A stretch of DNA of 64,000 nucleotides from Amoebidium appalachense. Taxonomy: Eukaryota > Protista > Ichthyosporea. The stretch covers positions 5,267,962 through 5,331,961 of the forward strand of contig CAVNZM010000007.1 of NCBI GenBank assembly GCA_963693365.1. Reading direction: 5' to 3'. Position numbers and translations under genes: made by a program. The notes beneath the pieces are model-generated. The model saw only the letters and a list, made by a program, of their open reading frames with translations, was not told the DNA's origin and did not search any database. This document shows positions 33,361-41,303 of the stretch, piece after piece (positions within the stretch are counted from its first letter, which is position 1; each line of letters starts with the position of its first letter).

Positions 33361-35029
33361 TTAGACACTAGTTTGGCTACTCTGACTACTCTGAGATCCT
33401 GATTGGCTGCCTGCAGACTTGCGGCCACGATTACTTTGCTTTCGATCGTGCCATTGCAGCTGCGTCTCTCCAGCAGGTGGCAACGCCAGGCCCAGCACAG
33501 CAGATGCACGAGAAGGGGGTGGGAACTGCCCACCAGCCGAGGGCTGGCCCACATGGCCCAAGTAAGGATGGGGACCGTGCTGCGGCAGTAGCCCAGGCAT
33601 GGGGAAGGCAGGGCCGGGCTGAGGCGGCATGATGCCCCACGGTGGGGGCCAGCCATGTGGGTGGTGCGGGCCTGGATGGGGTGCAGGGGGCATGTGCGGC
33701 ACATGGCCCTGCTGCATGTCAAGCGCGGGTGCTGGTGGCATGGCATCCTGATTGGCTGCAACCCAACGTGGGCAGCTCTTGGCCCGATTGGAGCCGGGGC
33801 AGCCCTTGCCCTGGCGGCCACACGTCTTGCAGGTCTTGGGGGCTCTCTGGGGTGGCTGCATAGGAGGGGGCACCGGCAAATCCATCTGCAGGGGCCCCTC
33901 AGGGCCAATGTTGCGATGCTTTTTGCCCACTAGCATGGGCAAGGGCCGCTCACGCTGCGCCCCTGCATCGACACCGTCTGGAACAGGGAGGGGTGGCAAG
34001 GGGGCAGGCCGTATGGTTGCTGGCACAGCGTCTGCCCTCTCCTCGCGCATACGCTTGCGGTGATCTGCCAGGCCCTCGTGTGTGGAGCGCTGTGCATGTG
34101 CCGTCTGCCAGGTCTTCCACTTGTCGAAATGCTTCTTGATGTAGGCCGCATCCTTCATGTAGATTCCCCCAGCCACAGAGGCAGCCTTGTTGAAGTCTTG
34201 GGCCAAAGCCTCGAACAGCTGGCCGTTGGGCTTTGCATGTGCCTTGTAGGTGCCCAGGAGCAGCGTGCTGAATAGCTTGCGCTCCTGAGGGGTAAGCACC
34301 GGAAGGAAGGGGATGGCCACATGTTGCTTCTGCGCCAGGAACTTGTAGTCGCCCCTCAGTGCAGGGTCCGGCTGTGGTGCACCACGCGCCACCTGGTTGC
34401 CCCCCCCCATGGCAGCACCGTCACCCTCCTCGACCTCACAGTCCTCTGGCCCGCCCATCACGCCATTGGCTGCAGGCTCGATGTTATCAGACGGAGGTGG
34501 GGGTGCGGGCACCGCAACTGGCTCCTGCGCCGGGGCATTGGCCACACAGGAGAGCGGGGCAAAGTTGAAGTACTCCTCCGGTAGCTTGTAGCAGCCTACG
34601 GGTACCCACTGGGGGTCGAGGTGATGGCCGTACAGCATCAGCGCCAGTGCCTCCATGTCGTCAACAATCCAGGGGCTGTAGTGGGGGGGCCCCGATGCCT
34701 GGCCCAGGCGGTTGCGGTAGTGTGCACGCAGGTTGTGGCGGTGGCGCCTATTGGACATGGTGGCGTCCAGCAGGCGCAGCGACATGCGTGTGGCCCCAAA
34801 GTGGGTGGCCAGGGGGTTGTGCACTGCCCCCTCCACCTCGTTGGTGCCCCGGATGCAGCGGTAGCGCATGAGCCCATCTGCGTCGGCAGTGGTCTCGTAG
34901 TAGAGGGGCAGGCCGGGGGGGTCCGACAGACAGCCATTTTGGGCGTGTTCGAGCAGCGACTGTGGGGGCACAAGCAAACATCAGAGAGATGGGTGGGTGG
35001 TGGTGGTGGTAGTGTGTGTGTATGTGTGT

Positions 35030-35060
<31 letters not shown>

Positions 35061-35144
35061 GGGGGGGGGGGATGGGGTTGCTAAGGAAAAAAACGAGCAG
35101 GGAAAGGCAAAAAACAACTGGCTAGGCAGCAAGGGCCGTGCGGG

Positions 35145-35214
<70 letters not shown>

Positions 35215-35789
35215 ATGTTTGGGGGGGGAGGGGGGGGGGGGGGGGGGGGGGAGGCTAGGGTGTGCGTGTGTGTGCAGATGAACCAAGGATGACAAATAAG
35301 CGAAGAATCTTTTCTGTGGTGGTGGAGTTGTTGGGCGCCTGCAGGGGGGGGGGGGGGGGGGGGGGATGTTGCCTCGAGTCTTTCAAAGCCATCCTTCTTG
35401 AACAGAGGCTTGCCATCCGGTCCGGGCGGCACATCCTTGTAGGTGTTTTTGAACTCCACCAGCCGCGAGACCAGCGTGTATGGGTCGGGAATAACCCGCC
35501 GGATGCGCTCCATGAAGTAGCTCAGGTCGCCGCCCTTGAGCTCGGTTTCAATGTCGATGCCCTTCTGCTCCAGCACCCCCTGTGAGGCAGGATGCCAATA
35601 TTAATTTACTACGCACACTGCAATTTGGGTTTGGTAGACTTTGATACCTGCCGTTATTGTAGGACCCCTCCCCTCCACCCCCCCCATCTTCTCCCCCAAC
35701 ACAAGTAAAAAATGCATGTGGCTATTTCCCCCCACAACCCTACATTATTTCTCTCTAGGCATATGAATAACCCCCACTCTCCTCCCCCC

Positions 35790-35845
<56 letters not shown>

Positions 35846-36889
35846 TTGCCCCCCCTCTCTCTGTGGCTCAGGCTCTCTCTCTTCCCTCAGAAGTTTTGTC
35901 GAAGGTGTGCATGGTTGTGGGTGGAATGGTGAGTGTGTGCTAACGAGTGTATGTGTGTGTGCGCGTCAGTCACGCATGTTGTTGTTGCCGTTTTTTTTAT
36001 TTTTATTTTTTATTTTTTATTTTGGGGGGGGGGGGGGGGGGGGGCACCTTCACATGTCCGTAATCCTCTTCATTCCACACAAATATTGCCTCGCTGAGTG
36101 CGCGTGCGTACTCAGCCCTGCGGGGGTGTGACTTGTACGTGCCGTCCGCCGTGTTTGCAATGGAGTGGAAGGCGTCATTCAGCACAGTCTGCCACACCAC
36201 CTCCCCAGGCGGTGCCTGGCCCAACATGCCCTCTCTGGGAGCTGCCTCGGGTCCCCCTGGGGCTGCCTCAAGGCCCCCCGGGGCTGCCTGGGGGTCCTGG
36301 GGGGGTGCCTGTGGGCCGGCAAGGGGTTGCTGCTGCTCGGCAGGGGGAGGACTGGCAGGGGGAGGGGCTGGGTCAGGGACCACCGGCACCTCGGCACCTG
36401 GGTCCGGTGGGGGCTGAATGGGCCGTAGCCACTGCAGGTGCACCATCAGCTCAAAGGGCGGCGGGCCCAGCTCTCCCAGGGTCTTGCCCTTGTCGGGGCC
36501 AAAGGGCACCTGCATGGCCGGCGACAGCACCTGATCCACCCGCACCACTGCATGCTTCTTGCCCACCTTCATGCCCCCCCAGCGCTCCGGCTGCACAGCC
36601 AGCACCACCCCGGTGGCTGCTGCAGCATGTGGGCCCCGCCGGGGCACAATCTCAACCCCTTCACCGAGTGCCTTTGCATGAAGCCGCGCTGCATGTCATA
36701 GAGGGAAGCAAAAAACTCAGCCAAAAAGCCACAGCACCAACGTTTTTCTCTTCGCTCCACAAAAATCAAATGCATATTCCTTAGCAACCCCCCTCCCCCC
36801 CCCCCCCCCCCCCCCCCCTTCTCCCTCCCCCCCCCCCCTCTCCCAGTGCCCAGCTTGTGTGGCACTTGCACGTGTTAACAGTGCTATAG

Positions 36890-36927
<38 letters not shown>

Positions 36928-37021
36928 ACCACCACCACCACCACCACCAATCACCCCCTCCTTTGATAGCCACCCGACACCCAGCATAACACAACTGGAA
37001 CACTGGCCCATGTGGTCAGCC

Positions 37022-39334: not shown

Positions 39335-39373
<39 letters not shown>

Positions 39374-39560
39374 CCCCCCCGCCTCCCGGCGCGCGCAAAC
39401 CCTCCAAGTCATTGCACCAACTTTCACCTTCTTTCCCCTTTGTGCCCCATCTGCAGTTTGTCCCCTGCACGTCCGTTTGCCCTTCCCCCCACACCCTCCT
39501 GCCACTACTATAATAACCATTAAGTACCGCCACCAAGATCCAGTCTACCACCATGTGCCC

Positions 39561-39592
<32 letters not shown>

Positions 39593-39742
39593 CCTCTCCA
39601 CCTCCTTTCCCCCAACACACACAGACACACATGCGCACACCCACCATCTAATTTCAGGCATAACAGTTCTCCACGATTTCCCAAGCACACTCACTGGTAC
39701 ATGGACCGTTATGCTTTCACCCCTCTGATGATCCCTCTGCCC

Positions 39743-39783
<41 letters not shown>

Positions 39784-39874
39784 ACCACCACCACCACCAC
39801 CACCACCACCATGACTGATTGCCACCACCACCACCTAATCCATCACCATGTCCCCCCCTCCCCCCTCCCCCCCC

Positions 39875-39905
<31 letters not shown>

Positions 39906-41303
39906 ACACACGGACCCACAAGTACACGCACACTCACAGGCGCACATCCACCACCACACATCCACCACCACCATAATAGAAACTTATTGACCACACTTCC
40001 AAAACCCATTTCCAAGTCCCCCCCCCCCCCCTAAAAAAAAAAATAAAAAATAATAAAACAAAACCCTACCAAGCCAACCCAAAAAATGCCCAAGCACGTG
40101 CATACAAAACAATGGGGACCATTTACACACCCAAAATGCAGTGCACACTTGCCTGAAGGCACATGTCCAGCGTAACCATTTTTGTCACCAAACGCCGAGA
40201 ACTTAGCCGCCTGCTCCTCTGGGGGAAGTTCTGTCAGGCGCTGGTCGTGGGGGCGGAAATCGTTACGCTTTTTGAGTTCATACTTGGTCCAATGCAGCGC
40301 CCTCGAGTAATACAGGAGCCGCTGCTCGTCGTATCGCTGCTTGTGGAGCTCCGAGAGGAGGGTGGCAAAGGCGTTTGGGCCCACACCTTTGTCTGCCAGT
40401 GCACGCAACAATGTTACCACCTTTAGGTCGAGCCCACTGCGGTGGCTAAGGTAGGCCGGAAACTGATCACGCATGAAGAGTGGAAGGCGTTTAATTGTCT
40501 GGGGGGTTTGTGCCGGCAAAGTTTTTTTTGCATGTGTCACAAAAGTACCGGGCCGTGATAATGTAGTAGCAGCTGTCAAAGTCGATAACACGCCGTCCTA
40601 CGGGGTTGCTCATGAACCCATTGCGAGAAGTACGGTGTGGGTTGGGGTGGTTGTGGGGGTCCACGTAGTGATCATCGAAGGGGCACGGCACCATGAAACC
40701 GGGAGACAACCTTTCCGGAAGCCAGGCAAAACATCTGGGTTTGTAGAAAGGCGCTGGATCGCCCCCAAATTTAAAGCCTATAATGGGAGGTGGAAGATGC
40801 CACCCCACAGGCGTCTTCTCATCTTTGAGACTCTCTTTCACTGTGTGCAGGTGCGACTTGATTGTTTCGCCCGCCGCGTCAGAAAACTCCTCTCCACCGT
40901 CATCCCCGTCCGTATTATCTTCTCCCTCTTCCTCCCCTTCATCCTCGTCTACCCGGTACGCATCTGCTGCTGCATTTAGCAAAGGTTCCTCGTCGGGTTG
41001 CACCTGTATGTCTGGTGGGTGTGGAGCAGGGGCCCGATCCATTTCTCTTGGTAACGAATGGACGCTACCTGCCTCAACTACACGGGCCCTTATGTCGGCG
41101 GCCTTAGATAGAGGGGGCTGTTCGGGTTGTACGTTTACGTTTAGTTCCTGCAAAACAGCTTTGTTTGCCGTCCCAAAACCTGCAAAGTTCGCTAAAGGCT
41201 GAACAAATGCAGCATCTTTTTTTTTGCGCCCAGCTCCCTCCCTAGCTCCGCCTGTTTTATGCCCAGGGCGCTGTGTTGTGCCCTTAGGGCAGCCTGGCTT
41301 CAT
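33361..41303 (-). CDS. MULE-like DDE transposase (~1538 aa) with inserted DEDDy 3'-5' exonuclease domain; +1 frameshift in G-run 40501-40506
   Basis: Exons 41303-40153, 39177-38989, 37997-37167, 36688-36048, 35579-35373, 34959-33361; introns 1 and 5 are GC-AG. Motifs in order: GGAREGAGRKK; Cys/His region followed by LP...FPAYLSHRSGLD; VLKADHTF (D1); FFYTDRCC (D2); exonuclease VVGLDCEW / IGTDSAHL / SNW...YAALDAY; LNDAFH (DxxH); GCLSDP; RGTNEVEGAVH (E); C-terminal CKTC-x6-C-x8-C. Confidence 0.88.
38095..38390. repeat. Degenerate minisatellite in transposase intron 2
   Basis: About six recurrences of aaacccatgtg(c)ccac...tcc(t)tcccc at roughly 40-60 bp spacing. Confidence 0.8.

Follow-up and report, generated by a model that had tools for sequence, protein, structure and literature searches.

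In the Dada transposases of Laccaria and Ectocarpus, an exonuclease is situated between the second catalytic Asp and the DxxH motif (Kojima and Jurka 2013, PMC3706591). The families concerned are Dada-1_LB and Dada-2_LB of Laccaria bicolor and Dada-1_ES of Ectocarpus siliculosus, and their exonuclease has four catalytic acids (PMC3706591). Published Dada elements have no terminal inverted repeats (TIR), are 4.7-11 kb long, possess an N-terminal zinc finger of the CCCC type and, at the C-terminus, one of the CCHC type, and exhibit target duplications of 6-7 bp, with 8 bp not ruled out for Dada-U1; introns are present in most of them, a relation to MuDR and IS256 is stated, and the idea that the exonuclease processes ends is already in print (PMC3706591). 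Many, not all, Dada elements target small-RNA genes (2022 paper, PMC8869645). Our literature searches found neither experimental work on the exonuclease of a Dada element nor a paper on DUF6729. In the genome paper on Amoebidium (PMC11244446), the name Dada is absent from the main text, while the supplements may list the family.

To judge from its sequence, the element found in the window (i.e., the whole stretch of 64,000 nucleotides from Amoebidium appalachense analysed here) is a specimen of this known Dada design and not a new kind, because the exonuclease-in-core design was published in 2013 (PMC3706591). The novelty of organisation considered in a preliminary description of the locus does not hold, the identical arrangement being in print (PMC3706591), and its reservation that the architecture might not be unique was justified, since the Dada elements of Laccaria and Ectocarpus share it (PMC3706591). 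We hold with high confidence that the element is a full-length, spliced and transcribed exonuclease-bearing Dada transposon, whose core likely cuts and pastes 11 kb and whose WRN-like module is likely an accessory trimmer of 3' DNA ends. The transposase gene is situated on the minus strand (41303-33361) and comprises six exons with a 1538-aa model:

40153..41303, minus strand: exon 1, with start codon, DUF6729, the zinc-finger-like motif C207/H212/C255/C258 and a GC donor
38989..39177, minus strand: exon 2, with the first catalytic Asp D418
37167..37997, minus strand: exon 3, with D487 as second catalytic Asp and with the 3'-5' exonuclease of the DEDDy type (D566, E568, D632, Y701, D705)
36048..36688, minus strand: exon 4, with a small predicted beta-rich domain, a proline-rich linker and D895xxH898
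35373..35579, minus strand: exon 5, with the helical insertion region and a GC donor
33361..34959, minus strand: exon 6, with the catalytic E1049, the C1383/C1386/C1393/C1402 finger, a low-complexity tail and the stop codon
40501..40506, plus strand: homopolymer C6 run with one extra base, by which the frame is broken in the window only

All seven motifs named in the preliminary description are found on the minus strand and in the order given there, i.e., KADHTF (D418), YTDRCC (D487), GLDCEW (D566/E568), GTD (D632), YAALD (Y701/D705), NDAFH (D895/H898) and GTNEVEG, in which E1047 is not conserved in the homologue alignment and E1049 was assigned as the catalytic Glu. D487 and the entire exonuclease are encoded by a single exon (exon 3), and introns 1 and 5 are of the GC-AG type. 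The transcript-derived Amoebidium protein P0009 (EukProt, 1538 aa) agrees with the model across all five introns, the exonuclease exon being spliced to the DDE exons, and it is identical to the model except at two positions, both at the frame break. The spliced junction of exons 1 and 2 is also present in contigs of X1 and X11, which are guessed RNA runs; among the runs listed, none that contains the sequence is registered as RNA. Concerning the isoform P0011, canonical splicing out of the donor of exon 4 does not account for its C-terminus.

The spliced protein of 1538 aa claimed earlier is that of the transcript, whereas the window sequence as written does not give it: its exons total 4618 nt, one nucleotide above the frame-compatible length, owing to the extra C at about 40501. 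In contigs of four out of four runs (X1, X11, X8, X13) one base is missing at 40501; this deletion has the full depth in X1, X11 and X8 and about 30% of the summed depth in X13; since these contigs do not contain the extra C, it is likely an assembly error. Small introns bypassing the frame break were considered and rejected: conserved residues would be lost with them, and both the transcript and the contigs run on through the region with no such intron.

The exonuclease (residues 558-712) is of the WRN type, sequence-intact and, as described earlier, situated inside the DDE catalytic core. The exon 3 protein matches Pfam DNA_pol_A_exo1 (E=2.7e-15), and WRN exonuclease is the best match both by sequence (E=5.7e-17) and, for the predicted model, by fold (Z 27.7, rmsd 1.7). 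WRN exonuclease (PDB 2e6l, 2fbt) and EXD2 agree with it in fold and in each of the three Exo motifs, at 28-32% identity; these are, however, host repair enzymes not located within a transposase, whereas the Amoebidium domain is a predicted exonuclease. In a comparison bearing on the monophyly of the transposon exonucleases against host enzymes, few of the latter being included, three WRN domains ranked 45, 47 and 51 of 83 by score.

That the element is a Dada whose exonuclease acts on RNA (small RNAs of host silencing, or the transcript of the element itself) and not on DNA ends appears distinctly unlikely. The fold family does include RNase D, Nibbler/Mut-7, EXD1 and EXD2 (Z 14.5-20.2), and the exonuclease can decay while the core remains intact (7 of 120 homologues); however, the best match by both measures is WRN exonuclease, which is a DNA 3'-5' exonuclease, and the domain adjoins the transposase active site. 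Under the preferred reading of a DNA trimmer, its role is likely accessory, for which the same seven homologues with a decayed exonuclease and its absence from the fish protein P0172 speak.

Concerning the transposase core, the structure that AlphaFold2, the method proposed in the preliminary description, predicted from an alignment of 70 sequences (mean pLDDT 74.9, pTM 0.67; P0011 as a single sequence, pLDDT 35.7) exhibits an RNase H-like strand order and matches ISCth4 of the IS256 family (6xg8; Z 14.2, rmsd 3.9, 258 residues, model range 1-724). This match was reached by the wide structural search only; the Foldseek rows shown contained exonuclease-type chains and no transposase, and no transposase was among the 41 matches of the sequence profile to the PDB. 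In the model, D418, D487 and E1049 are predicted to form one RNase H-type site, the insertion of the exonuclease and the small beta-rich domain would follow the second Asp and precede the fifth strand, and the helical insertion would begin at the DxxH. An RNase H core with a helical insertion and a C/DxxH motif is common to ISCth4, Mutator-like elements and, as predicted, the Amoebidium protein; ISCth4 is, however, only 11% identical and has no exonuclease insert in the aligned range of the solved chain. ISCth4-type and Mutator-like elements have inverted-repeat ends.

Of 151 homologues, 89 possess the full set of D, D, DxxH and E, the remainder consisting mostly of fragments, and 79 of these 89 retain all five exonuclease residues (the word-indexed protein searches returned four proteins each). 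Separate phylogenies of core and exonuclease, as suggested earlier, have 28 of 77 splits in common, compared with a maximum of 2 in 200 permutations. The family profile matches P0172 at E=6e-70, and the core profile without the insert aligns to residues 355-660 of P0172 in one stretch. The link to the curated Dada transposases goes via this protein, which by eye closely agrees with the coding sequence of Dada-U6_LaCr from the 2022 dataset; unlike the Amoebidium transposase, P0172 lacks the exonuclease, whereas DUF6729 is common to it and P0009. The target-specific animal families (Dada-U6, -U1, -tA and others; PMC3706591, PMC8869645) likewise possess a homologous DDE core and an N-terminal DUF6729 region.

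The exonuclease-bearing Dada elements agree with that of Amoebidium in the placement of a DEDDy exonuclease with four catalytic acids in the interval from the second D to the DxxH, and the exonuclease motifs of Dada-1_ES and Dada-1_LB (Fig. S1, PMC3706591) resemble the Amoebidium motifs by eye. The core comprises D418, D487, D895xxH898 and E1049, with a spacing of 69 between the first two, compared with 68 in Dada (PMC3706591). The zinc fingers are present as variants: C-H-C-C in the first (C207/H212/C255/C258) and C-C-C-C in the last (C1383/C1386/C1393/C1402), versus CCCC and CCHC as published.

The preliminary description had assigned the protein to the Mutator/MULE and IS256 type, which stands for the related group (ISCth4, Z 14.2) but not for the family, which is Dada. 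A Mutator-like element (MULE) without TIR whose WRN-type exonuclease was acquired independently of Dada is highly improbable. Its 8-bp duplication is nearer to the range of MULEs, whose target duplications are about 8-11 bp, an IS256-family member is the closest solved transposase, and the Atlas gives a weak lead towards Pfam Mutator, with a score of 0.83 and for 14% of members; however, P0009 matches only DUF6729 and DNA_pol_A_exo1 in Pfam at E<=0.1 and no MULE or Mutator transposase domain, with a sensitivity that the exonuclease insert may lower, and the profile match to the Dada-U6-like fish protein, with its DUF6729, is colinear. Long terminal inverted repeats, which are usual in MULEs and lacking in some, are not found in the element. 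The ISCth4 fold match is explained by the published relation of Dada to MuDR and IS256 (PMC3706591).

A bounded element with defined ends and a target duplication, as anticipated, was found; the coordinates 33361..41303 given at first are those of its coding span:

30575..41625, minus strand: whole Dada-type element, 11,051 bp, flanked by the duplicated 8-mer; right end +/- 1 base
30567..30574, plus strand: target site duplication, left copy ATAAAAAC; single copy in the uninterrupted repeat at 42036-42043
41626..41633, plus strand: target site duplication, right copy ATAAAAAC; empty-site junction in contigs of four out of four runs
30591..30597, plus strand: sub-terminal inverted word, 7 bp, left arm CAGGAGC; weak
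41601..41607, minus strand: sub-terminal inverted word, 7 bp, right arm; weak
41626..42706, minus strand: target repeat, likely the 3' end of a LINE-like element; continues at 30349-30574
3855..7542, minus strand: second, truncated copy, matching 30575-34280; left end the same, flank different

At the left end, contigs of X7, X8 and X13 start at 30575; at the right end, an X1 contig departs from the window sequence after 41624. The duplication is perfect and, at this one insertion site, best read as 8 bp; it would be 7 bp if base 30574 belonged to the element, against which the contigs beginning at 30575 speak. There is no terminal inverted repeat (complementarity in 3 of the 8 and in 9 of the 30 terminal bases), and the sub-terminal word is weak because 48 of 5000 random window pairs are equal or better. 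The target-specific animal Dada elements likewise have no TIR and a short sub-terminal inverted word, and in length the Amoebidium element lies close to the upper limit of the published range (4.7-11 kb).

The last 405 bp of the target repeat occur twice, and an empty target is present at 41791-42198. Target-specific animal Dada elements have genes of snRNA, tRNA or 5S as their insertion sites and produce duplications of 6-7 bp, whereas the Amoebidium copy has a LINE-like repeat as target and an 8-bp duplication, with no fixed insertion in an snRNA, tRNA or 5S rRNA gene. No tRNA was found in the window, and the 150 Rfam matches listed (of 218) include no snRNA, tRNA or rRNA, all being microRNA models below gathering scores on simple repeats.

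The second copy differs from the element by 7 substitutions over 3668 aligned bases (99.8% identical); the flanks of the two window copies are unrelated, and several unlike flanks occur in the run contigs. A domesticated or dead transposase gene that has lost its mobility, as five introns, transcription and the frame break in the window might suggest, is most improbable given the perfect duplication with its empty site, the nearly identical second copy, the unlike flanks, the absence of the frame break from the contigs and the introns in most Dada elements (PMC3706591).

For the mobile Dada element, the DDE core would cut out and paste the 11-kb element, strand transfer at an 8-base stagger would produce the 8-bp duplication, and the WRN-like module would have the accessory task of trimming 3' DNA ends, most likely on the broken donor flanks or the non-transferred ends. 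The transferred ends of the element itself would probably not be its substrate, since both window copies and the contigs of three runs share one and the same base as left end and since the duplication is perfect. A further-reaching reading is rather unlikely: that exonuclease-bearing Dada elements constitute a distinct, widespread lineage without small-RNA-gene targeting and with 8-bp duplications, in which, following excision, resection of the donor break by the WRN-like domain leads to the element being copied back through homologous repair.

The text of PMC3706591, as far as it was available, does not name target and termini of Dada-1_LB, Dada-2_LB and Dada-1_ES; both are defined here, in an ichthyosporean host. 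The Amoebidium copy supplies both termini, the duplication and the empty site for an exonuclease-bearing family, as well as a splice pattern that is confirmed and a transcript covering the full length, and it suggests that exonuclease-bearing Dada elements need not be specific for small-RNA genes. Furthermore, the N-terminal region of Dada transposases is linked with DUF6729, an unannotated Pfam family; this link would aid the annotation of many proteins of fungi and protists that currently carry the label 3'-5' exonuclease. If true, donor-break resection would mean a transposase steering the repair of its own gap, and the intact, expressed Amoebidium element with both its ends allows a direct test.

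The motifs of the preliminary description, which had placed a WRN-type exonuclease inside the DDE core of a transposase, were recovered in the same set and order from six spliced minus-strand exons of a eukaryotic gene with GT-AG or GC-AG introns. Pfam assigns residues 155-342 of the full protein to DUF6729 and residues 557-715 to DNA_pol_A_exo1. The exons sum to 1538 codons, a stop and one surplus base, the latter owing to a C6 run at around 40501-40506.

Exons of the transposase gene and second copy of the element (window positions)
41303-40153, minus strand, exon 1
39177-38989, minus strand, exon 2
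37997-37167, minus strand, exon 3
36688-36048, minus strand, exon 4
35579-35373, minus strand, exon 5
34959-33361, minus strand, exon 6
3855-7542, second copy, with the same left end as the main element and an unrelated flank

With exon 3 as query, a transcriptome-assembly protein was found that is 100% identical across the exon and belongs to a cluster of 18 members labelled Amoebidium parasiticum in EukProt (15 of the 18 members listed). The transcript-derived protein P0009 (1538 aa) equals the gene model apart from the frame-break site, such that all five junctions, including both GC donors, are present in it, and the exonuclease exon is joined to the exons with the other catalytic residues. 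A single base is missing at 40501 in the contigs of all four sequencing runs compared over 40100-42030 (at full depth in three, at around 30% in run X13), and the surplus base in the window is most likely an assembly error; run X8 is a possible source of the window sequence. Contigs of X1 and X11, which represent one sample, guessed to be RNA and possibly not independent of the EukProt record, pass from exon 1 straight to exon 2. Intron 1 has minus-strand donors at 40130 and 40152 with one common acceptor: the GC donor yields the full transposase, whereas the GT donor 22 bases beyond accounts for the frameshifted isoform P0014 (399 aa), which comprises the zinc-finger/DUF6729 N-terminal region only and might be a repressor, possibly under splice control. 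A further isoform, P0006, differs from P0009 by a 5-residue indel within a short direct repeat of exon 4 (36320-36350), which might stem from another copy, from an allele or from a collapse of the repeat during assembly.

Concerning the ends, the bounded element with a target site duplication mentioned earlier is indeed present: self-comparison of the window revealed a repeat interrupted by 30575-41625 and found in uninterrupted form at 41791-42198. The 8-bp sequence ATAAAAAC flanks the element on both sides and occurs once at the empty site, the junction of which is also found in contigs of four out of four runs. The right end is accurate to one base, since one X1 contig departs after 41624 into a different flank. 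At the left end (30575), contigs start in X7, X8 and X13 (X15 lacks coverage there), and the loose flanks on four X13 contigs agree mutually at just 0.56. The second copy carries 7 substitutions over 3668 aligned bases. No terminal inverted repeat exists at the element ends; an inverted word of 7 bp, situated 17-25 bases in from each end, is equalled by 48 of 5000 random pairs. One X1 contig contains 22 additional bases at 41546-41563, repeating 17 bases and absent from X8 and X13; with them, the left end's first 8 bases recur as a perfect inverted copy some 80 bases in from the right end, which represents either the relic of an end or an assembly artefact. An X11 contig exits the element at 41448 into at least 255 bases of unrelated sequence, with no AG at the junction, and might derive from a copy whose right end is shortened.

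On its minus strand, the target repeat possesses a polyadenylation signal and a short poly(A), and an upstream frame weakly resembles the end of a reverse transcriptase frame located elsewhere in the window (E=2e-5); on these grounds the target probably represents the 3' end of a LINE. A search of the window for tRNA genes gave none, and the 150 Rfam matches listed of 218 are all microRNA models below threshold. A reverse transcriptase frame of a LINE-like element lies at 8541-10249 (RVT_1, E=3e-17), and the final 646 bases of that element recur at 24657-25302, inserted in another fragment of the repeat hit by Dada.

Several further features are situated in the window. Two nearly perfect palindromes, 69 and 77 bases long, occur at 3785-3854, adjoining the left end of the truncated second copy, and at 8037-8113; a 106-base repeat (3396-3501 and 8190-8294) stands near both, which suggests another element. 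A further transposase gene may be represented in fragments by two minus-strand frames of 190 and 173 aa at 43354-44645, for which a weak hit to HTH_33 (E=0.04) is the only match. Long inverted repeat pairs between 22777 and 28254 (22777-23394 versus 25460-25593 and 27878-28254) are probably non-autonomous DNA transposons, and a C2H2 zinc-finger gene at 49564-50895 (zf-C2H2, E=7e-11) is likely a host gene.

In an AlphaFold2 model of P0001 using 70 sequences (mean pLDDT 74.9, pTM 0.67), the first Asp belongs to a set of three strands, from which a helix leads to strand four, with the second Asp at its end. The exonuclease comes next, then a small domain rich in beta structure and strand five, which precedes DxxH; an inserted helical region and the Glu-bearing helix follow. 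Among 48,161 solved chains, the top match is the mouse WRN exonuclease (Z 27.7, rmsd 1.7, 184 residues), and ISCth4 is the sole transposase among the best 50 (Z 14.2, rmsd 3.9, 258 residues, model range 1-724). D, D and E are predicted to form one RNase H-type active site, alongside a WRN-like domain. The beta-rich domain (36688-36430; P0009 residues around 734-813) is confidently predicted and has no family match; a segment of at least 50 residues stands at its position in 102 of 120 homologues.

The homologue search returned 3819 proteins at E<=0.001, the weaker matches probably including host exonucleases, and 220 at E<=1e-30. Among 151 aligned homologues, comprising the top matches and two proteins from aphelids, 89 possess the full set D, D, DxxH and E, and 79 of these 89 retain the exonuclease D, E, D, Y and D. 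Eleven species-named homologues of 20 checked belong to agarics, one mucoralean, Plasmodiophora and one fish; Amoeboaphelidium also has homologues. Phylogenies of the core (309 columns) and of the exonuclease (155 columns), built from the same 80 complete proteins, have 28 of 77 splits in common (maximum 2 in 200 label permutations), with a Mantel rho of 0.55 (null maximum 0.21), which fits long joint inheritance of the two sequences; this set was picked with a two-domain query and so gives no frequency of insert-free relatives. Among the 120 proteins that cover the insert, seven combine a decayed exonuclease with an intact core (P0045, P0052, P0086, P0131, P0134, P0137, P0163); all five looked up are Agaricales.

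The fish Dada-U6-like protein P0172, found by the family profile (E=6e-70), lacks the insert, and a core-only profile aligned to it as one stretch. Compared by eye, it agrees closely with Dada-U6_LaCr in the Kojima 2022 dataset (PMC8869645). Since P0172 scores 306 bits on DUF6729, this domain would, judging by one protein, be the Dada N-terminal region. In the Dada families of Laccaria and Ectocarpus reported by Kojima and Jurka 2013 (PMC3706591), an exonuclease likewise separates the second D from DxxH. For Dada, their paper gives duplications of 6-7 bp, absent terminal inverted repeats, lengths of 4666-10979 bp, zinc fingers at both ends and a D1-D2 spacing of 68 (69 in the Amoebidium protein); from this published rule, the Amoebidium element departs in target and, on the best reading of its termini, in duplication length. 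PMC5751038 counts 1,023 fungal Dada copies across 4 phyla.

As in related DDE enzymes, the transposase would nick the element ends, and strand transfer with an 8-base stagger would precede gap filling by the host. The exonuclease is probably an accessory module, given that the fish protein has none and that it has decayed in some agarics; that it erodes the transferred ends is unlikely in view of the exact left end and duplication. Among its possible roles, trimming of donor flanks would be the best guess, with RNA as substrate the main rival.

The element is real and intact, likely recently mobile, and a further example of an already described kind, to which it adds a fully bounded specimen; the homologues with a decayed exonuclease constitute natural controls for the role of this domain.
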